Shown: positions 4,323-46,931, numbered from the stretch's first letter. The stretch is 64,000 bases of DNA from an uncultured Bacilli bacterium (GCA_934087065.1 CAKOIS010000002.1:11880-75879); one strand, 5' to 3'. Numbers and translations are program-made. The notes: generated from the sequence alone by a model not told the origin.

Positions 4323-4359
4323 AATCTCACTTTTTATATTGACAATACCTACTAAAAAA

Positions 4360-4567
4360 TGATAACATTATCTTGTAATAGTGAGAGTAACAAAAATTCT
4401 CAAGTTTTAAAAAACAAAGGAGAGATACACATGAAAACAAAATACACTTTAAAACCTAGTATGGGGGGGGGTTATTTAACTAGCGTAAATAACTATAGTT
4501 TTCATGTGCAATTAAATGGATAGAATAATTCTACCCATTTTTTCGTGTGTAAGAAAAGAGGTAAGGT
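4360..4567 (+). promoter_or_regulatory. conserved leader, copy 1: palindrome gataacattatc, uORF (4431-4484) containing a G9 tract (4463-4471), and a hairpin plus T-run (about 4505-4535)
   Basis: About 80% nucleotide identity with the leaders at 23205-23405, 33855-34049 and 45105-45302. The G-tract length differs between copies. Confidence 0.6.
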
Positions 4568-4810
4568 ATGACAAATGAAGAATTAAAGAAAATTGTTGGA
4601 AGAAACGTAAAAAAGTATAGGCTTATATATAATGCGTACAACAAAGAAAAACTTACTCAGAAAGACTTAGCTGAAAAGATAGGTGCAAAGACACCTCTTA
4701 TAGGTGCTTTAGAAAGCGAGAACAACAACATGGGAATAAGTATATATAACTTATATATGATAAGTAAAGTACTAAATGTACCAATAGAAAAGTTTTTTGA
4801 GGAGGAATAA
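4568..4810 (+). CDS. XRE-family helix-turn-helix transcriptional regulator (80 aa)
   Basis: HTH_3-like segment LTQKDLAEKIGAKTPLIGALE. Lies between the conserved leader and paralog 1, and only in this copy. Confidence 0.55.
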   Translation: MTNEELKKIVGRNVKKYRLIYNAYNKEKLTQKDLAEKIGAKTPLIGALESENNNMGISIYNLYMISKVLNVPIEKFFEEE

Positions 4811-4815
4811 AGTAT

Positions 4816-7308
4816 ATGAAGAATAAAAAAGGAATGATATATGGAGTACTATTAATGACTTGTTTAGTAATAGGTTTATCTTATGGAGCATTTATATTTA
4901 GTACAGATAAATATAGAAGTAGTGAATTATTAATAAGTAAGTTAAACTATAGTATAGATATACAAGAAGACGGAAGTAATAAGTCTACAATTAATGGAAG
5001 TTCAGTAACAGTACCAGCTAGTACTAAAGTATATTTAAATATTACTTTAACAAGTGTAAATGAAATAGATAGTAAATATACTTTAGCATATAAAACTAGC
5101 ACAAACGCTAAAGTAGAGTACTCAGATAGAACACCATGGAACACACAAGGAGTAATAAAAGGAATAGACAGTAACACTTATTCAAAAAAGATAAGAGTAG
5201 TAATAGATAACACAAATATCTCAACACCATCTACAGTAAACTTTCAAGTATATGGTGGATACTCATTTAACTCATATGCAAATATAGAACTAACTGATGG
5301 ATATGTATCAGTAAGTGGACCATACACAGAAGTTGCAACAAACATAGGAAATAGACTAGTAGATATAATAGAAAGTGATACAAGTTGTTTAACAAGTAAT
5401 TCTAACACTTGCTTGTATGGTGGAGAGAACATTAAAAACTATGTACAATACCCAGAAGACAATGACAAAACAAAGAACTTATGGAGAATAATAGGAAGTT
5501 ATCAAATAGAAGATCAAACACTACCAAAACTAATAAGTCAAAGTACAAGTAGTACTAGTACTTCAACACTAACAACAGACTTAACAAGTTTCTATAACAC
5601 ATTAGAAGATAAAGAAGTATTAGTACAACAAACAAATAAATTTAATTGTTTTACTAATACTTGTGTAGAAAGCACTTACAACAATATTGGCTTACTAACA
5701 GACTATGAATATAATCAAATAGGTGGAGTAAACTCATACTTAGCAACTACAGAAAAATATTACATAAATAGTTCTAGCGGAATAAAAGAAGTAACATCAA
5801 GTGGGATAACAAACCCAAGTAATACAAGTGGACTAAAACCAACAATATACTTACAAACTGGAGTACAAGTAACAGGAAGTGGAACAGTGAGTGACCCATA
5901 CATCATAAGTCCAGCAAGTGATATAAATTTAGTTGCTTATACATTAAATGGACAAGCAACAGATAAAAATTATGCAGATTTACTTAAAACAAATGTAGTA
6001 GATAAAGTAACATGTAAAAACGGAACAACAGCAACATGGGACAATACAGATTTTTCAATAAAATTAAAGAATATACATACACCAGACTATTGTACAATTG
6101 ATTTTGGAGATGGATACAGTGTTAGTTTAACAGCAACAAATGGTACAGTAAGTCCATCAAATATAACTGTAGGATATAATGGAAGTGCAAGTTTTACTGT
6201 AACACCTAACAGTGGATATAAACTAGAACTTGAAACAAACACATGTGGCGGAACACTATCAGGAAGTACATATACAATAAGTAATGTAACAAGTGCAAAA
6301 AGTTGTAGTATAACATTCAAGTCTTCTACACAAACATTATATGCTAAACTGCTTGCTGATAAATCAACAGTATTAACAAGAACAGACTTTAGTAAAGTTT
6401 TAACAAATGACAATACAAACACATTATATACAGGAACAGAGAATGGAACAACAGTATATTATTTTGCAGGGAATGCAACAGATAATTGGGTAAAGTTTGG
6501 AAAGAATGCAACTAATCAAGACTTATACTGGAGAATAATAAGAACAAACTCAGATGGTGGAGTAAGACTACTATACCATGGAACAAGTACTACAGCAACA
6601 GATGCGGTTATAAACACAAGTACAGCATTTAATACAACATATAATAACCCAATGTATGTAGGATATATGTATGGAACAAGCGGTTCATTAGTAAATAATA
6701 GAACAAATACAAATAATAGTACAATAAAAGGAATAATAGATACATGGTATGAAAATAATCTAAAAACTAACTATACAAAATACTTAAGTACAACAGCAGT
6801 ATATTGCAATGATAGAAGTAACCCAGCAGGTGGATATAACACTGGAGGTACAACATTCTACTATGGTGGATATACACGATTAATAACAAATAAAACACCA
6901 ACATATGACTGTACAGACACTAACGATAAATTCACAGTAGACACAAGTACAGGAAACGGGAAACTAACATACCCAATAGCATTAATGACAGCAGACGAAG
7001 TAAGTTTTGCAGGTGGACTAGCGGGAACAAACGCACCAACATGGTATTATTATAATAGTGCAAAGGGTAGCTCAACAGGTGACACCAGGTGGTGGCTGTT
7101 GTCTCCTTACTATTGGAGTAGCGGCCACGCTTACGTGTTTCGCGTGTACGGTTCGTCCTACCCTGGCCGCTTGAACTACAACAACGTCAACTACACCGCT
7201 CTTGGTGTTCGTCCGGCAGTTTCTCTCAAATCTTGTATCAAGACAAGTGGAGGAGATGGCTCGGCAAACGCACCATACACAATAGAAGAAAGTACAAGTG
7301 GGTGCTAA
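4816..7308 (+). CDS. secreted/surface protein, paralog 1 (830 aa). N-terminal signal anchor and S/T-rich linker. The C-terminal half is homologous to paralogs 2-4 and ends in an adenine-depleted hypervariable domain (WWLLSP...GVRPAVSLKSC)
   Basis: RBS gaggagg. The C-terminal ~330 aa align with ORFs 23406, 34050 and 45303. Terminal CLec/DUF1566-like pattern (YW..S...AY.V.F.V.G....GVRP). Confidence 0.8.
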   Translation: MKNKKGMIYGVLLMTCLVIGLSYGAFIFSTDKYRSSELLISKLNYSIDIQEDGSNKSTINGSSVTVPASTKVYLNITLTSVNEIDSKYTLAYKTSTNAKVEYSDRTPWNTQGVIKGIDSNTYSKKIRVVIDNTNISTPSTVNFQVYGGYSFNSYANIELTDGYVSVSGPYTEVATNIGNRLVDIIESDTSCLTSNSNTCLYGGENIKNYVQYPEDNDKTKNLWRIIGSYQIEDQTLPKLISQSTSSTSTSTLTTDLTSFYNTLEDKEVLVQQTNKFNCFTNTCVESTYNNIGLLTDYEYNQIGGVNSYLATTEKYYINSSSGIKEVTSSGITNPSNTSGLKPTIYLQTGVQVTGSGTVSDPYIISPASDINLVAYTLNGQATDKNYADLLKTNVVDKVTCKNGTTATWDNTDFSIKLKNIHTPDYCTIDFGDGYSVSLTATNGTVSPSNITVGYNGSASFTVTPNSGYKLELETNTCGGTLSGSTYTISNVTSAKSCSITFKSSTQTLYAKLLADKSTVLTRTDFSKVLTNDNTNTLYTGTENGTTVYYFAGNATDNWVKFGKNATNQDLYWRIIRTNSDGGVRLLYHGTSTTATDAVINTSTAFNTTYNNPMYVGYMYGTSGSLVNNRTNTNNSTIKGIIDTWYENNLKTNYTKYLSTTAVYCNDRSNPAGGYNTGGTTFYYGGYTRLITNKTPTYDCTDTNDKFTVDTSTGNGKLTYPIALMTADEVSFAGGLAGTNAPTWYYYNSAKGSSTGDTRWWLLSPYYWSSGHAYVFRVYGSSYPGRLNYNNVNYTALGVRPAVSLKSCIKTSGGDGSANAPYTIEESTSGC
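7090..7227 (+). other. putative DGR variable region (VR) of paralog 1
   Basis: A-depleted, GC-rich stretch in an AT-rich gene. The codons that vary against paralogs 2-4 are NNC (tac, cac, cgc, aac, acc). Conserved scaffold codons lack A. A conserved 3' boundary (gtttctctcaaatcttgtgtcaagacaag) contains a small inverted repeat. Confidence 0.55.
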
Positions 7309-23209: not shown

Positions 23210-23405
23210 AAAATGATAAGATTATCTTGTAATAAAGATAGGAAGTGAAGCACATGGAAGTTAATTCTTTAGTACAAAACAAAGTACAAATTGGGGGGGG
23301 GTTATTTAAATAGTATAAATAACTATAGTTTTTCATGTGCAATTATATGGATAGAATAAGTCTACCCATTTTTTCGTGTCTTAAAAAGAAAGGAGTGCAT
23401 TAAAT
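23205..23405 (+). promoter_or_regulatory. conserved leader, copy 2: palindrome gataagattatc, uORF from ATG 23255, G10 tract 23293-23302, hairpin plus T-run about 23346-23372
   Basis: Homologous to the leaders at 4360, 33855 and 45105. Confidence 0.6.
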
Positions 23406-24905
23406 ATGCAAAGGAAACAATTAACACTTGTAATAGTAAGCTTACTAGTAGTAGTACTAAGTGTATCACTTGCTTACTTTACAGCACAAATAATAGGAAA
23501 GGGAAAAGATGTAAGTGTAACAAGCGCAAACCTACAAATAGTATTTACAGATAGTGATGGAGCTTTAACAGAAACTGATATAGAACCTGGCTGGACTAAA
23601 ACTAAAACATTTACTATTAAAAATGATACTAAGATAGAATACAAATATAATATAGTAATAAAAGACTTATTAAATACTTTTGTAACTAATGGATACTTAA
23701 AGTACAAGATAACTAGTACAAATAATGGATATAATATGACTGAGTTTAAAGATATTCCAAAGTCTAGTGCACCTAAAGATACAATATTAGCTTATAGTGT
23801 AGTAATACCTAATGGAGTAACACAAAGTTATACAATTGAATTTAAGTATGCAAACGATGAAAGTGTAGACCAAAGTGATGATATGGGTAAGAAACTAAGT
23901 GGAACACTATTTATAACTGAGGAAACAGAAGATCCAAACAAAACACTATATAATCAATTACTTGTAGACAAATCAAAAGTATTAACAAGAACAGACTTTA
24001 GTAAAGTTTTAATAGATAATAATACAAACACATTATATACTTCTACTGAAGATAGTAAAACAGTATATTATTTTGCAGGGAATGCAACAGATAACTGGGT
24101 AAAGTTTGGAAAGAATGCAAGTAATCAAGACTTGTACTGGAGAATAATAAGAACAAACTCAGATGGTAGTGTAAGACTTCTTTACCACGGAACAAGTACT
24201 ACAGCAACAGATGCATATATTGGTGAATCAGCATTTAATAATAGTAGTTATACTAATATAGCATATGTAAGTTATATGTACGGAAGTACAGGAAGTATAG
24301 CAAATGCTAGAACTAACCAAAAAAACTCTAGTACAATAAAAGACAAAATAGATAACTGGTATAAAATCAACTTAGAAGCAAAAGGTTATACAAAATACTT
24401 AAGTACAACAGCAGTATATTGTAATGATAGAACATATGCAGTATCTGGAGATACATACTTTGGAGCATACACAAGACTAATAACAAATAAAACACCAAGT
24501 TATGACTGTGCAACAACAGAAGACAAATTCACAGTAGACACAAGTACAGGTAACGGAAAACTAACATATCCAATAGCATTAATGACAGCAGACGAAGTAA
24601 GTTTTGCAGGTGGACGATATGGTACAAATGCACCAACATGGTATTATTATAATAGTGCAAATGGTAGTTCTACAGAATCAAATGCTTGGTGGTTGTTGTC
24701 TTCTCGCAATTGGAATGGCGGCGACGCTATTGTGTTCTTCGTGTATGGTTCGTCCGAACAACCTGGCAATTTGAGCAACAGTAGGGTTGACGGCACTTAC
24801 GGTGTGCGTCCAGCCTTATCACTAAAATCTTGTGTAAAATATGCAAGTGGAGATGGCTCAGCAAGTGACCCATACACAATAAAAGAAACTACAAATGGAT
24901 GCTAA
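23406..24905 (+). CDS. secreted/surface protein, paralog 2 (499 aa) with C-terminal A-depleted hypervariable domain
   Basis: N-terminal signal anchor MQRKQLTLVIVSLLVVVLSVSLA. First ~170 aa nearly identical to paralogs 3 and 4. C-terminus WWLLSS...GVRPALSLKSC. Confidence 0.85.
   Translation: MQRKQLTLVIVSLLVVVLSVSLAYFTAQIIGKGKDVSVTSANLQIVFTDSDGALTETDIEPGWTKTKTFTIKNDTKIEYKYNIVIKDLLNTFVTNGYLKYKITSTNNGYNMTEFKDIPKSSAPKDTILAYSVVIPNGVTQSYTIEFKYANDESVDQSDDMGKKLSGTLFITEETEDPNKTLYNQLLVDKSKVLTRTDFSKVLIDNNTNTLYTSTEDSKTVYYFAGNATDNWVKFGKNASNQDLYWRIIRTNSDGSVRLLYHGTSTTATDAYIGESAFNNSSYTNIAYVSYMYGSTGSIANARTNQKNSSTIKDKIDNWYKINLEAKGYTKYLSTTAVYCNDRTYAVSGDTYFGAYTRLITNKTPSYDCATTEDKFTVDTSTGNGKLTYPIALMTADEVSFAGGRYGTNAPTWYYYNSANGSSTESNAWWLLSSRNWNGGDAIVFFVYGSSEQPGNLSNSRVDGTYGVRPALSLKSCVKYASGDGSASDPYTIKETTNGC
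24687..24824 (+). other. putative DGR variable region (VR) of paralog 2
   Basis: A-depleted. Variable NNC/NNT codons (cgc, aat, ggc, gac, att, ttc, agc, aac, agt, gac, ggc, act, tac). One extra codon relative to copies 1 and 3. Confidence 0.5.
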
Positions 24906-33854: not shown

Positions 33855-34049
33855 TTTTTTGATAAGATTATCTTGTAATAAAGATAGGAAGTGAAGTACA
33901 TGAAAATTAACTCTTTAGTACAAAATAAAGTACAAAATGGGGGGGGGTTATTTAACTAGCATAAATAACTATAGTTTTTCATGTGCAATTAAATGGATAG
34001 AATAAGTCTATCCATTTTTCGTGTCTTAAAAAGAAAGGAGAGCATTAAT
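33855..34049 (+). promoter_or_regulatory. conserved leader, copy 3: palindrome gataagattatc, uORF from ATG 33900, G9 tract 33939-33947, perfect 11-bp hairpin plus T-run about 33991-34026
   Basis: Homologous to the other three leaders. The hairpin aaatggataga-ataag-tctatccattt is followed by tttcgtg. Confidence 0.6.
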
Positions 34050-35531
34050 ATGCAACGAAAACAATTAACACTTGTAATAGTAAGCTTACTTGTAGTAGTA
34101 CTAAGTGTATCACTAGCTTACTTTACAGCACAAATAATAGGAAAGGGGAAAACTGTAGACGTTAGTAGTGCTAACTTACAAATAGTATTTACAGATAGTG
34201 ATGGAGCTTTAACAGAAACTGATATAGAACCAGGCTGGAGTGCAACTAAAACATTTACTATTAAAAATGATACTAAGACAGAATACAAATATAATATAGT
34301 AATAAAAGACTTATTAAATACTTTTGTAACAGAAGGATATTTACAATACAAAATAACTAGTACAAACGATGGATATAATATGACTGAGTTTAAAGATATT
34401 CCAAAGTCTAGTATAGCAACAGATACAATACTAGCTTATAGTGTAGTAATACCTAATGGAGTAACACAAAGTTACACAATTGAATTTAAGTATGCAAACG
34501 ATGAAAGTGTAGACCAAAGTGATGATATGGGTAAGAAACTAAGTGGAACATTATTTATAACTGAAGGAACAGAAGATCCAAATAAAACACTATATAATCA
34601 ATTACTTGTAGACAAATCAACAGTATTAACAAGAACAGACTTTAGTAAAGTTTTAACAGATAATAATACAAACACATTATATACTTCTACTGAAGACAGT
34701 AAAACAGTATATTATTTTGCAGGGAATGCAACAGATAACTGGGTAAAGTTTGGAAAGAATGAAAGTAATCAAGATTTATACTGGAGAATAATAAGAACAA
34801 ACTCAGATGGTGGAGTAAGACTACTATATCATGGCACAAGTACTACAGCAACAGACGCATATATAGGAATATCAAAATTTAATACAGAATATAATGATCC
34901 AATGTATGTAGGATATATGTATGGAACAAGCGGATCACTAGTAAACAACAGAACAAATATAAGTGATAGTACAATAAAAACAACACTAGATAATTGGTAT
35001 AAAGATAATTTGAATACAAATTATGGAAAATACTTAAGTACAACAGCAGTATATTGTAACGATAGAAGTACATCAAATGATACATCCTTTGGAGCATTCA
35101 CAAGACTAAAAACAAATAAAACACCAAGTTATGACTGTGCAGCAACAGAAGACAAATTCACAGTAGATAATAGTACAGGCAACGGTAAACTAACATACCC
35201 AATAGCCTTAATGACAGCAGACGAAGTAAGTTTTGCAGGTGGACTATGGGCAACAAATGCTTCTACTTGGTATTATTATAATAGTGCAAACGGAAGCTCA
35301 ACAGGCTCAAACTGGTGGTGGTTGTTGTCTCCTCGCCTTTGGATTGGCGGCTACGCTAGCGTGTTCAACGTGAACGGTTCGTCCGGCCCTGGCCGCTTGT
35401 ACTTCGACGACGTCAACAACTCTTACGGTGTGCGTCCGTCAGTTTCTCTCAAATCTTGTGTCAAGACAAGTGGTGGAGATGGCTCAGCAAGCACACCATA
35501 CACAATAGAAGAAACTTCAAGTGGATGCTAA
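34050..35531 (+). CDS. secreted/surface protein, paralog 3 (493 aa; start moved from 33993 to the conserved MQRKQ ATG)
   Basis: RBS aaaggagag plus ATG 34050 is the position conserved in paralogs 2 and 4. C-terminus WWLLSP...GVRPSVSLKSC. Confidence 0.85.
   Translation: MQRKQLTLVIVSLLVVVLSVSLAYFTAQIIGKGKTVDVSSANLQIVFTDSDGALTETDIEPGWSATKTFTIKNDTKTEYKYNIVIKDLLNTFVTEGYLQYKITSTNDGYNMTEFKDIPKSSIATDTILAYSVVIPNGVTQSYTIEFKYANDESVDQSDDMGKKLSGTLFITEGTEDPNKTLYNQLLVDKSTVLTRTDFSKVLTDNNTNTLYTSTEDSKTVYYFAGNATDNWVKFGKNESNQDLYWRIIRTNSDGGVRLLYHGTSTTATDAYIGISKFNTEYNDPMYVGYMYGTSGSLVNNRTNISDSTIKTTLDNWYKDNLNTNYGKYLSTTAVYCNDRSTSNDTSFGAFTRLKTNKTPSYDCAATEDKFTVDNSTGNGKLTYPIALMTADEVSFAGGLWATNASTWYYYNSANGSSTGSNWWWLLSPRLWIGGYASVFNVNGSSGPGRLYFDDVNNSYGVRPSVSLKSCVKTSGGDGSASTPYTIEETSSGC
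35313..35450 (+). other. putative DGR variable region (VR) of paralog 3
   Basis: 17 A in about 138 nt within an AT-rich genome. All but one A lie in NNC codons (att, tac, agc, aac, aac, tac, gac, gac, aac, aac, tac). Scaffold codons (tgg tgg ttg ttg tct cct ... ggt tcg tcc ... cct ggc cgc ttg ... ggt gtg cgt ccg) are A-free. Confidence 0.55.
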
Positions 35532-44691: not shown

Positions 44692-45084
44692 ATGGAAATT
44701 ATAGAAACTAAAATACAAAAAATATACGTATCAAATAATTGTGTAACTTATGCTTTTATGGTAGACTGCAATAAAGGTTACGCTTTCAGTGTAGTAAACT
44801 ATTCAAGAGAATGTGACTTCATGTCAAATGCTTTTGGTGCATCAAAGAAATTAAAACTAGGTAAAACAGCATACATTACACTAACTAAAGATAACAAAAT
44901 ACTTAGTATATCAAACGAACTTGGTGAGACAATTATCACAACTTTAACTTACGATTATGCTTATGGTACAGTAGATACTAAGAACAGAGATTACATAATA
45001 AATGAACTTGGTACAACTATGGAAGAATATACTTTAGATGTAGCAAAAACTGTTAAAGGAAAAAGTTTAACAAAAACTATGTAA
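44692..45084 (+). CDS. hypothetical protein (130 aa)
   Basis: ORF with RBS ggatggga. No motif recognised. Confidence 0.35.
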   Translation: MEIIETKIQKIYVSNNCVTYAFMVDCNKGYAFSVVNYSRECDFMSNAFGASKKLKLGKTAYITLTKDNKILSISNELGETIITTLTYDYAYGTVDTKNRDYIINELGTTMEEYTLDVAKTVKGKSLTKTM

Positions 45085-45104
45085 AGGTACTTGAAAAGAG
45101 TATC

Positions 45105-45302
45105 TTTTTTTGATATCATTAATTATGTAATAAAGATAGGAAGTGAAGTACATGAAAATTAACTCTTTAGTACAAAATAAAGTACAATATGGGGGGGGTT
45201 ATTTAAATAGTATAAATAACTATAGTTTTTCATGTGCAATTAAATGGATAGAATAAGTCTATCCATTTTTTCGTGTCTTAAAAAGAAAGGAGAGCATTAA
45301 AT
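45105..45302 (+). promoter_or_regulatory. conserved leader, copy 4: uORF from ATG 45152, G8 tract 45191-45198, perfect hairpin plus T-run about 45239-45272
   Basis: Homologous to the other leaders. With 8 G the uORF stays in frame through the left arm of the hairpin and stops at the TAA in its loop. Confidence 0.6.
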
Positions 45303-46931
45303 ATGCAACGAAAACAATTAACACTTGTAATAGTAAGCTTACTTGTAGTAGTACTAACTGTATCACTAGCTTACTTTACCGTACAAATAATAGGAAAGGG
45401 GAAATCTGTAGACGTAACAAGTGCTAACTTACAAATAGTATTCACAGATAGTGATGGAGCTTTAACAGAAACTGATATAGAACCTGGCTGGACTAAAACT
45501 AAAACATTTACTATTAAAAATGATACTAAGATAGAATACAAATATAATATAGTAATAAAAGACTTATTAAATACTTTTGTAACTAATGGATACTTAAAGT
45601 ACAAGATAACTAGTACAAATAATGGATATAATATGACTGAGTTTAAAGATATTCCAAAGTCTAGTGCACCTAAAGATACAATATTAGCTTATAGTGTAGT
45701 AATACCTAATGGAGTAACACAAAGTTATACAATTGAATTTAAGTATGCAAACGATGAAAGTGTAGACCAAAGTGATGATATGGGTAAGAAACTAAGTGGA
45801 ACTCTTTATATAGAGAAAGGGACTTTACCAACGTTAAGTGAGAAACTTTTTGCTGATAACCCAACAATACAAACAAGAAGTTCATTTGATGCAGTATTTA
45901 CTGAAACAAACACAGGAACTTTATATAAAGCAACAGAAAGTATAGCAGGTAGTCCTGCAAAAGATGTGTATTACTTTGCAGGAGATGCAAAGAATAACTG
46001 GGTTAATTTTGGAAAATATCAAACAGATTATGTTGTCTATAGAGGTTATTCTGAAACAGGCAGTAAATACATAGATTATTTGACAATGGATGCATGTACT
46101 AGTGCCTCAAATTATAATATTAATTGTACTGAACAAATATATTGGAATAAGGGTAATGATATATACTGGAGAATAGTAAGAACAAACTACGATGGAAGTG
46201 TAAAACTTCTATATGCGGGAAATAGCCCTGATACAACAAGTGGATACATAGGAACAAGTGCATTCAATAGCACAAATAATGATTCAATGTATGTAGGATA
46301 TAAATATGGTACAAGTGGGACTCTAGCAAATAACAGATTAAATACAAATGATAGTACAATAAAAACTTTTATAGATAACTGGTATAGTAATAACTTAACA
46401 AGTTATACAAAATATATAAGTACAGAAGCAGTATATTGTAATGACAGAAAAGCACTAAGCTATAGTATAAGTAGTTCTTTTGATTACTATGTACAAACAA
46501 GACTAGGTGCAGGAAATCCAACATATGATTGTGAAGATAGTAGTGATGCATTTTCAGGAAGTAATAGTGAAGCAAAATTAACACACCCAATAGGACTAAT
46601 GACAGCAGATGAAATAACATATGCAGGTGGTAAAGATACTACAGGCTTAACAAGTCCATATGCATGGTATTATCTAAACAGTGCTGGGGAAAGTATAACC
46701 GGAACACAATGGTGGTGGTCCTTGTCACCTCGACTCTGGAATGGTGTCATTTCGTACGTTTGGTTCGTTTTTGGTTCTTCTATTCCGGGTGCCCTTTTGA
46801 GCACCGCCGATGTGAACTTTGAGAATGGTGTTCGCCCCGCCATTTCTCTCAAATCTTGTGTCAAGACAAGTGGTGGAGATGGTTCAGCTAGTAACCCATA
46901 CACAATACAAGAAACAGCAAGTGGTTGTTAA
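45303..46931 (+). CDS. secreted/surface protein, paralog 4 (542 aa), with a more divergent C-terminal half and an A-depleted hypervariable terminal domain
   Basis: The N-terminal 170 aa are nearly identical to paralogs 2 and 3. The C-terminal domain WWWSLSP...GVRPAISLKSC is related but more diverged. Confidence 0.85.
   Translation: MQRKQLTLVIVSLLVVVLTVSLAYFTVQIIGKGKSVDVTSANLQIVFTDSDGALTETDIEPGWTKTKTFTIKNDTKIEYKYNIVIKDLLNTFVTNGYLKYKITSTNNGYNMTEFKDIPKSSAPKDTILAYSVVIPNGVTQSYTIEFKYANDESVDQSDDMGKKLSGTLYIEKGTLPTLSEKLFADNPTIQTRSSFDAVFTETNTGTLYKATESIAGSPAKDVYYFAGDAKNNWVNFGKYQTDYVVYRGYSETGSKYIDYLTMDACTSASNYNINCTEQIYWNKGNDIYWRIVRTNYDGSVKLLYAGNSPDTTSGYIGTSAFNSTNNDSMYVGYKYGTSGTLANNRLNTNDSTIKTFIDNWYSNNLTSYTKYISTEAVYCNDRKALSYSISSSFDYYVQTRLGAGNPTYDCEDSSDAFSGSNSEAKLTHPIGLMTADEITYAGGKDTTGLTSPYAWYYLNSAGESITGTQWWWSLSPRLWNGVISYVWFVFGSSIPGALLSTADVNFENGVRPAISLKSCVKTSGGDGSASNPYTIQETASGC
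46710..46850 (+). other. putative DGR-type variable region (VR) of paralog 4, a divergent class
   Basis: About 12% A. The conserved 3' boundary tttctctcaaatcttgtgtcaagacaagtggtggagatgg is shared with copies 1 and 3. Confidence 0.45.

Follow-up and report, generated by a model that had tools for sequence, protein, structure and literature searches.

Four G tracts in the window

The window, by which we mean the whole stretch of 64,000 nucleotides analysed here from an uncultured Bacilli bacterium, carries four copies of a leader, each upstream of a member of one protein family. Its GC content is 25-35%, mostly below 30%, and 28% overall. Four G runs of six or more are present in total, with none besides on either strand, and every one of the 15 hexamer matches of G or C in the 64 kb (1.56 expected) falls within these four tracts:

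4463-4471, + strand: G9 tract of copy 1; nine G is the read-through length in this leader
23293-23301: G9 tract of copy 2
33939-33947: G9 tract of copy 3
45191-45198, + strand: G8 tract of copy 4, the putative hypermutable switch; eight G gives the long frame

The G8 tract of copy 4 lies where the initial annotation had placed it.

The leader of copy 4

The remaining features of copy 4 that bear on the gene downstream are as follows.

45091-45119, + strand: predicted sigma-70 promoter (TTGAAA, 17-nt spacer, TATCAT, TG extension)
45138-45148, + strand: SD-like sequence of the uORF, AGGAAGTGAAG
45152-45256, + strand: long-frame uORF of 34 codons and a TAA (ATG 45152-45154, TAA 45254-45256)
45242-45271, + strand: predicted intrinsic terminator (AAATGGATAGA, loop ATAAG, TCTATCCATTT, T-run), its stem covarying across leaders
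45303-46931, + strand: regulated gene for a 542-aa hypothetical protein, with SD GGAG at 45289-45292

The promoter was the best match in its region at 10 of 12 positions, by consensus match alone. Translation of the uORF ended in MKINSLVQNKVQYGGGYLNSINNYSFSCAIKWIE followed by the stop codon (ORF ending at 45256). The initial annotation had read this frame from ATG 45152 to a TAA in the loop of a hairpin that is followed by a T-run, and translation and coordinates confirmed both the frame and the T-run (45266-45271). In the core stem GGATAGA (45246-45252) pairs with TCTATCC (45258-45264) around a 5-nt loop, ATAAG (45253-45257), which encloses the TAA of the uORF. When extended, the stem comprises 11 pairs (45242-45268), AAATGGATAGA with TCTATCCATTT, and the hairpin had a folding energy of -11.8 kcal/mol. 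It was the single match in a terminator scan of 44900-45500, where 0.1 were expected. With G9 or with G7 (equivalent to G10), stops were found 9 and 5 nt past the tract, respectively.

A candidate internal promoter for the copy 4 gene (TTTTCA, 16-nt spacer, TAGAAT, 45227-45254) was rejected, as it matched at 9 of 12 positions, was frequent in shuffles and was unconserved in other lineages. An Rfam 15 search of the whole window gave no match to the leaders at the gathering threshold, and a permissive search of 45050-45330 returned sRNA matches of at most 25 bits, compared to cut-offs of 48-98 bits, with no credible family. In the third frame, an ATG in the terminator 5' arm opens a 20-codon ORF across the hairpin (45244-45299 in copy 4 and 4516-4578 in copy 1) that terminates near the SD or start of the main gene and has no SD of its own; this ORF is probably incidental. 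In the MFE folds of most leader types the G tract pairs with a CUCUUU pyrimidine run in the 5' part of the uORF (45167-45198 in copy 4), a pairing that may be trivial, given that G pairs with C as well as U.

The leaders of copies 1 to 3

The segment from the tract to the terminator is nearly identical in all four leaders, whereas copy 1 has no relation to copies 2-4 in the sequence preceding the tract. The features of these three leaders are

4339-4368, + strand: predicted promoter of copy 1 (TTGACA, 18-nt spacer, TAACAT, TG extension)
4431-4523, + strand: long-frame uORF of copy 1, of 30 codons and a TAG, with ATG at 4431 and a strong SD, AAAGGAG
4514-4543, + strand: terminator-like hairpin of copy 1, with one A.C mismatch, -7.5 kcal/mol and a T-run
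4568-7308, + strand: regulated genes of copy 1, an XRE-type HTH gene (4568-4810) and a gene for an 830-aa family member (4816-7308)
23254-23313, + strand: uORF of copy 2 in the short frame, MEVNSLVQNKVQIGGGLFK and stop, containing the G9 tract at 23293-23301
23345-23375, + strand: terminator-like hairpin of copy 2, with an A.C mismatch, -5.7 kcal/mol and a T-run
23406-24905: regulated gene of copy 2
33900-33959, + strand: uORF of copy 3 in the short frame, MKINSLVQNKVQNGGGLFN and stop, containing the G9 tract at 33939-33947
33991-34022, + strand: terminator of copy 3, -11.8 kcal/mol, with a T-run
34050-35531: regulated gene of copy 3

The 5' part of the copy 1 uORF is unrelated to that of copies 2-4, yet it runs in frame into the tract. 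Its peptide, MKTKYTLKPSMGGGYLTSVNNYSFHVQLNG, ends at a TAG (4521-4523) within the 5' arm of the hairpin. In copies 2 and 3, both G9, the uORF stops at a TAG 12 nt past the tract. The long frame is thus found in two of the four copies of the window (1 and 4) and the short frame in the other two. The initial annotation had held that copy 4 alone has a uORF running into the hairpin; this proved too narrow, as copy 1, with G9 and a different upstream frame, does the same.

The four leaders also differ in the strength of their signals. Copies 2-4 have a weaker SD (AGGAAGTGAAG) than copy 1, and the terminators of copies 1 and 2 are weak, each with an A.C mismatch; a simple terminator scan missed the hairpin of copy 1. 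Upstream of the tracts, at distances of 70-95 nt, there are promoter-like sites (consensus matches alone), and we therefore infer that the tracts are transcribed.

A 21-nt motif, TGATAA(G/C)ATTATCTTGTAATA, is common to copies 1-3 (4360-4380, 23214-23234 and 33860-33880), where it overlies the predicted -10 and start region. It includes the palindrome AAGAT-T-ATCTT and was matched three times, compared to 0.03 expected. The counterpart in copy 4 has diverged (45111-45132). The motif is a candidate operator that could serve, for example, the XRE protein controlled by copy 1.

The regulated proteins and their neighbourhood

Overall, identity among paralogs 2-4 is 69-70%; their first ~170 residues hardly differ, while their C-terminal halves diverge. 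The 830-aa protein of copy 1 has its C-terminal part in common with them. The near-identical 5' coding regions extend over 23406-23920, 34050-34560 and 45303-45810. This pattern suggests that leader and 5' coding region form a cassette that may have spread by gene conversion or recent duplication.

The family counts more than 6000 database proteins at E ≤1e-5, all annotated as hypothetical. Copies 1 and 2 scored 21.4 and 22.0 bits to DUF6273 (PF19789), compared to a gathering cut-off of 23.5, and copies 3 and 4 had no match; some close homologues have a precomputed PF19789 match. Searches of NCBIfam and of PDB sequences with the regulated proteins gave no match. The AlphaFold model of the 542-aa copy 4 protein (mean pLDDT 78.9) has an N-terminal hydrophobic helix (residues 3-30) followed by beta-rich, beta-sandwich-like domains. 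Foldseek matches were weak, the best plausible one being the TasA fibre 8aur_A (probability 0.96, TM 0.14/0.27), and no function was assigned on this basis. An 'AYF(T/S)' motif at the N-terminus of the copy 4 protein is, we take it, reminiscent of TasA-type signal peptides. The regulated proteins may be read as exported or surface-anchored, which would fit a phase-variable family.

The cassettes are scattered among housekeeping genes (polA, genes for DNA gyrase/topoisomerase IV-type subunits and hrcA). Small XRE-type HTH genes recur beside the family: the gene at 4568-4810 lies directly behind the copy 1 leader and ahead of the 830-aa paralog, and in contig L032 an XRE-type gene (2056-2286) sits between a paralog and the next leader and cassette. 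A ribosomal protein L21 leader (RF00559, 40919-40990, 37.9 bits compared to a gathering threshold of 36) lies upstream of rplU-like ORFs and is unrelated to the switch.

Tract length differs between assemblies

To compare tract lengths, exact matches to the downstream proteins were located in other assemblies and their leaders were read. With identical flanks, the copy 4 locus had G8 in the window and in L002 and G9 in L001, a Hadza assembly. The copy 2 locus, again with identical flanks, had G9 in the window and G8, which gives the long frame, in L003. At the copy 1 locus, flanks were identical and the tract was G9 in seven cases (the window and six further), G10 in three and G11 in one. Scanning metagenomes with the conserved leader core added 59 further loci with tracts of G5 to G10, all of them from human-gut metagenomes, and lengths varied across the 68 window-type leaders. 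Homopolymer lengths from short-read assemblies may be wrong or reflect mixed populations. Tract length genuinely differs between samples.

Many contigs of metagenomes and MAGs end in or beside leaders (L002, L026, L047, L056, L101, L102, L121, L132 and L138), and L002 starts exactly at the uORF ATG. Two reference contigs of UBA11492 are masked by N runs over most of the leader (~2211-2470 in L016 and ~2183-2388 in L082), which made both leaders unreadable; the N run in L016 begins directly 3' of a G tract and that in L082 finishes at one. Evidently, assemblies of these genomes break at the repeated cassette.

Conservation of the frames and the terminator

A genome scan with an alignment of the four paralogs identified 78 loci, from MAGs labelled uncultured Bacilli, Tenericutes or Bacillota (sources include UMGS1658, UBA11492, Clostridium sp. 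CAG:628, and Hadza, Nepal and rabbit MAGs). In many homologues a G8-G11 tract lies ~105 nt upstream of the start, within leader sequences substantially unlike those of the window. The layout of SD and uORF, G8-11 tract, terminator, and SD and gene precedes many paralogs of this very large family of hypothetical proteins in uncultured gut Bacilli; the window holds four such cassettes, and a single MAG yielded nine.

We translated the 37 leaders with a readable uORF at the observed tract length and with one G fewer or more. These came from the window, other assemblies and reference MAGs of several species, and represent at least five clearly different sequence types. An SD and an ATG uORF were present in all four copies and in the 37 leaders. 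Exactly one frame in each (37/37) gave a peptide of 27-35 aa with its stop inside the terminator hairpin, and the remaining two frames stopped 1-15 nt past the tract, which is 21-40 nt before the hairpin (37/37). For a single leader taken alone this geometry recurs in 3-26% of shuffles, so that the argument rests on its conservation across leaders that are divergent but related (not independent) and not on the improbability of any one of them.

The terminator stems vary by lineage yet pair (GGATAGA/TCTATCC, GAGATAGGG/CCCTATCTC, TTCATAGGC/GTCTATGAG and GCACACATAGA/TCTATGTGTGT). In a mixed alignment of 15 leaders RNAalifold found compensatory changes in four of the eight pairs, and a second set, of 11 leaders, had 99.6% of its cells paired, with none of 500 shuffles as good.

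Alleles in which the tract has been lost show a bias in frame. Among locked window-type alleles, defined by a longest G run of six or fewer, 12 of 13 had the long frame. Among them are a deletion allele, MKKNTFINNYSFSCAIKWIE, present in eight contigs, and interrupted tracts (..NRGN.., ..MGEGY.. and ..MGDY..). In L049, from another lineage, GAGGGAGGG replaces the tract, again in the long frame. When only independent locked alleles are counted, L049 included, approximately six of seven are long (binomial p ~0.007 relative to an expectation of 1/3). Among leaders with intact tracts the long frame was neither clearly enriched nor depleted: 29 of 55 window-type leaders were long and 26 short, and in reference MAGs 4 of 21 were long and 17 short. 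Mixed frames are as expected for a switch.

A second helix, P1, in the leader

In addition to the terminator, the copy 4 leader has the potential to form a helix, designated P1, between the start of the uORF and the segment before the terminator:

45148-45158, + strand: 5' arm of P1, GTACATGAAAA (RNA form GUACAUGAAAA), which holds the uORF start codon
45227-45237, + strand: 3' arm of P1, TTTTCATGTGC (RNA form UUUUCAUGUGC), immediately before the terminator, within the part of the uORF read in the long frame

The duplex energy of P1 in copy 4 was -13.8 kcal/mol, and 5 of 1000 shuffles were equally good. P1 was present in the MFE fold of all 13 leader types tested, with duplex energies of -11 to -15.4 kcal/mol that 0-18 of 1000 shuffles equalled. 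In a second super-type of leader the register is shifted (AAACUAUGR with YCAUAGUUU) and the helix is retained. RNAalifold recovered the terminator and not P1 from the mixed alignment of 15 leaders; because the pairing register differs between the two super-types, P1 was tested per sequence and within one super-type. In 11 sequences of that super-type it was 100% paired, with one compensatory pair (AUGG:CCAU compared to AUGA:UCAU). The conserved 'SFSCA' codons of the uORF coincide with the 3' arm of P1.

P1 and the terminator share no nucleotides and both form in the MFE folds; P1 is therefore not an antiterminator. We also sought an antiterminator in a pairing of the pre-terminator segment with a terminator arm, by eye and in MFE folds, and saw merely options of 4-6 bp, none of them convincing. 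P1 probably makes the switch sharper: it may shut the start of the uORF once no ribosome is translating through the 3' arm, or it may pause the polymerase just before the terminator until a long-frame ribosome arrives.

A proposed phase-variable attenuator

In our view the four leaders are likely to be phase-variable attenuators of transcription, mediated by the ribosome. The promoter would give a leader RNA of ~150 nt with an SD and short uORF, a G8-G11 tract ~13 codons into it and, ~45-55 nt beyond the tract, a terminator; the structural gene, with its SD and start, would follow ~35 nt past the terminator. Slipped-strand mispairing in replication would add or remove one G and so change the frame of the uORF. 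In the short frames the ribosome would be released 21-40 nt before the hairpin, which could then form and terminate transcription (OFF), or, with a weak hairpin, leave it leaky rather than fully OFF. A ribosome in the long frame would stop within the terminator, in its 5' arm or its loop, and cover the RNA of the stem, allowing the polymerase to read into the gene (ON).

The sequences show the anatomy of the leaders, the length polymorphism, the conservation with covariation and the bias of locked alleles; we infer the transcription start sites, termination itself, the direction of the switch and the role of P1. That the long frame is ON fits the bias among locked alleles, because a gene locked OFF would decay. 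In some Firmicutes transcription-translation coupling is thought to be loose, which would oppose occlusion by a ribosome unless a pause helps.

In the state captured in the window, copies 1 and 4 are predicted to be ON and copies 2 and 3 to be OFF. The initial annotation had proposed that a ribosome in the long frame prevents the hairpin and that, were the hairpin a terminator, copy 4 would be the only paralog expressed. The former is well supported by comparison, through the conserved geometry and the locked alleles, and by an experimental analogue in Streptococcus gallolyticus described below. The latter did not survive, as copy 1 shares the long frame and the window is only part of the genome.

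Other explanations must be weighed against this one. The uORF could be a phase-variable gene for a functional peptide of ~30-35 aa, the hairpin its own terminator and the large gene independent of the tract. The long-frame peptides do have a loose motif in common across lineages (..LLLTNS..SF.C.L..), gene callers annotate a 34-aa ORF in some contigs, and the long frame of the locked alleles would also fit selection on a peptide. However, a 1-nt deletion in copy 1 gives the C-terminus SFHVQLNG compared to SFSCAIKWIE and the stop still falls in the hairpin, so that it is the position of the stop, not the peptide sequence, that is conserved. The conservation of 'SFSCA' can be explained at the RNA level through the 3' arm of P1, and only ~35 nt, with no conserved promoter, separate the T-run from the SD of the main gene. 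We consider this explanation unlikely. More doubtful still is a switch of the opposite polarity, in which translation in the long frame would favour termination by melting an antiterminator, as in trp-type systems, and the short frames would be ON. Classical trp-type attenuators do terminate upon full translation of the leader peptide, and the short frames of 17 of the 21 tract-bearing leaders from reference MAGs would agree with such a polarity. It is opposed by the position of the long-frame stop in the stem or loop of the terminator, where a terminating ribosome covers the stem, by the absence of any role for P1 as antiterminator and of any other alternative pairing found with a terminator arm, and by the locked long-frame alleles, which would be permanently off. 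In addition, the analogue has the long frame ON by experiment (PMC3894217).

It is highly improbable, in our judgement, that the tract acts at the DNA level by altering promoter geometry (the spacer or the phasing of an activator site) with the uORF incidental. Poly-G/C tracts in promoters are a well-known device of phase variation, and repeat tracts change promoter geometry in Bordetella fim, Mycoplasma vlp and Treponema tpr; weak promoter-like matches also occur inside the leader. The best promoter matches nevertheless lie 70-95 nt upstream of the tract, and no -35 or -10 hexamers are conserved around it across lineages. Such a mechanism would have no use for a three-base periodicity, for the immediate double stops past the tract, for an SD and uORF in two unrelated upstream contexts or for a long-frame bias in locked alleles. 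We give the least credence to the view that the difference between G8 and G9 in the window is an assembly or sequencing error of no biological meaning. Homopolymers are error-prone and contigs often break at these leaders, but independent assemblies of different samples with identical flanks gave both G8 and G9 for copy 4 and G9, G10 and G11 for copy 1. Furthermore, the tracts are the sole G/C runs of six or more in 64 kb of 28% GC DNA, and they occupy the same position in a conserved architecture in many species.

The attenuator and P1 can be combined in a broader proposal that is possible and that we hold tentatively, in which P1 would make the leader a self-reinforcing, pause-synchronised device and dozens of such independent switches per genome would give an uncultured gut lineage with a reduced genome combinatorial surface variation of the Mycoplasma kind. 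At P1, just ahead of the terminator, the polymerase would pause, and the helix would shut the start site of the uORF. Only a ribosome in the long frame would melt P1, which would free the polymerase with the ribosome behind it and reopen the start codon. Some of the switches would drive XRE regulators adjoining family members, and these might act on the shared promoter motif.

Implications

The switch most likely toggles surface-protein genes ON and OFF in an uncultured gut bacterium. Its distribution suggests that abundant uncultured Bacilli of the human gut, which databases label Tenericutes or Mycoplasmatota MAGs, may vary their surface stochastically; such variation bears on immune evasion, phage resistance and the interpretation of metagenomes at the strain level. 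Tract length in metagenomic reads could serve as a barcode of the expression state of each paralog, and the leaders account for the fragmentation of these genomes at the leader sites in assemblies. The leaders would be the second, evolutionarily independent case of phase variation through a leader peptide and terminator, the first such switch to use a homopolymer and the first to occur as a portable cassette before a whole multigene family.

Comparison with known systems

Occlusion of a terminator by a ribosome has precedents in E. coli. In pyrBI and rph-pyrE an upstream ORF is translated up to or into the terminator and a close ribosome blocks the hairpin; Jensen (1993) is said to have found that the rph-1 frameshift, which stops translation early, lowers pyrE expression. 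The leaders described here would likewise depend on ribosome occlusion, and an early stop would lower downstream expression. Unlike them, pyrBI and rph-pyrE sense UTP through polymerase pausing, and rph-1 is a mutation of laboratory strains, not a programmed reversible switch. Attenuators of the trp and his type likewise have a leader peptide and a terminator, together with a helix upstream in which the coding region of the leader takes part. In contrast to those, no regulatory codons were noted in our leaders, no antiterminator pairing was found, and full translation is predicted to prevent termination.

Homopolymers in ORFs or promoters underlie phase variation in Neisseria, Campylobacter, Haemophilus, Bordetella fim, Treponema tpr and Mycoplasma vlp. 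The switch proposed here resembles these in the slippage of poly-G, in the stochastic and reversible ON/OFF expression of surface-protein genes and in multigene families with independent switches. It would differ in that the tract lies outside both the regulated ORF and the promoter and acts through a separate uORF and terminator, so that the regulated protein is never truncated. In Clostridioides difficile, cwpV varies in phase by a site-specific DNA inversion that alters RNA folding of the 5' leader. Like cwpV, the switch proposed here would use an intrinsic terminator ahead of a gene for a surface protein, in its 5' leader, but the cwpV switch involves no repeat and no ribosome.

The closest counterpart is pil1 (and pil3) of Streptococcus gallolyticus, in which GCAGA repeats in the ORF of a leader peptide change its frame (Danne 2014, PMC3894217). 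A leader peptide that stops at least 28-39 nt before the terminator hairpin gives low expression and piliation and one that stops within or after the hairpin gives high expression and piliation; ribosome-mediated anti-termination was confirmed there with start-codon, triple-stop and terminator-deletion mutants (PMC3894217). Beyond Danne 2014, our literature search found neither a homopolymer/uORF version nor a multicopy cassette, nor phase variation in RF39-like or these gut Bacilli.

Both systems have a hypermutable repeat in a leader-peptide ORF, an intrinsic terminator and genes for surface structures downstream, and the short- and long-frame stop distances found here fall on the same sides of the boundary. 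Both also belong to Gram-positive, gut-associated bacteria. They differ in several respects. Our leaders have a G homopolymer that changes in 1-nt steps instead of the GCAGA pentamer, and contain neither GCAGA nor other sequence similarity to the pilus leaders. Here a single frame of the three is long, compared to both out-of-frame classes in pil1. The cassettes occur in many copies per genome before a large paralogous family, compared to one or two pilus operons, and a helix like P1, between uORF start and pre-terminator segment, is unmentioned for pil1 and pil3 in the parts of PMC3894217 consulted. The pilus switch is established there by experiment, whereas the attenuator described here is predicted by computation from sequence. 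We regard the relation between the two as one of analogy, not of common descent. By that analogy the principle is already known from one streptococcal pilus system, and what would be new here is its multicopy use with a homopolymer and the extra helix.
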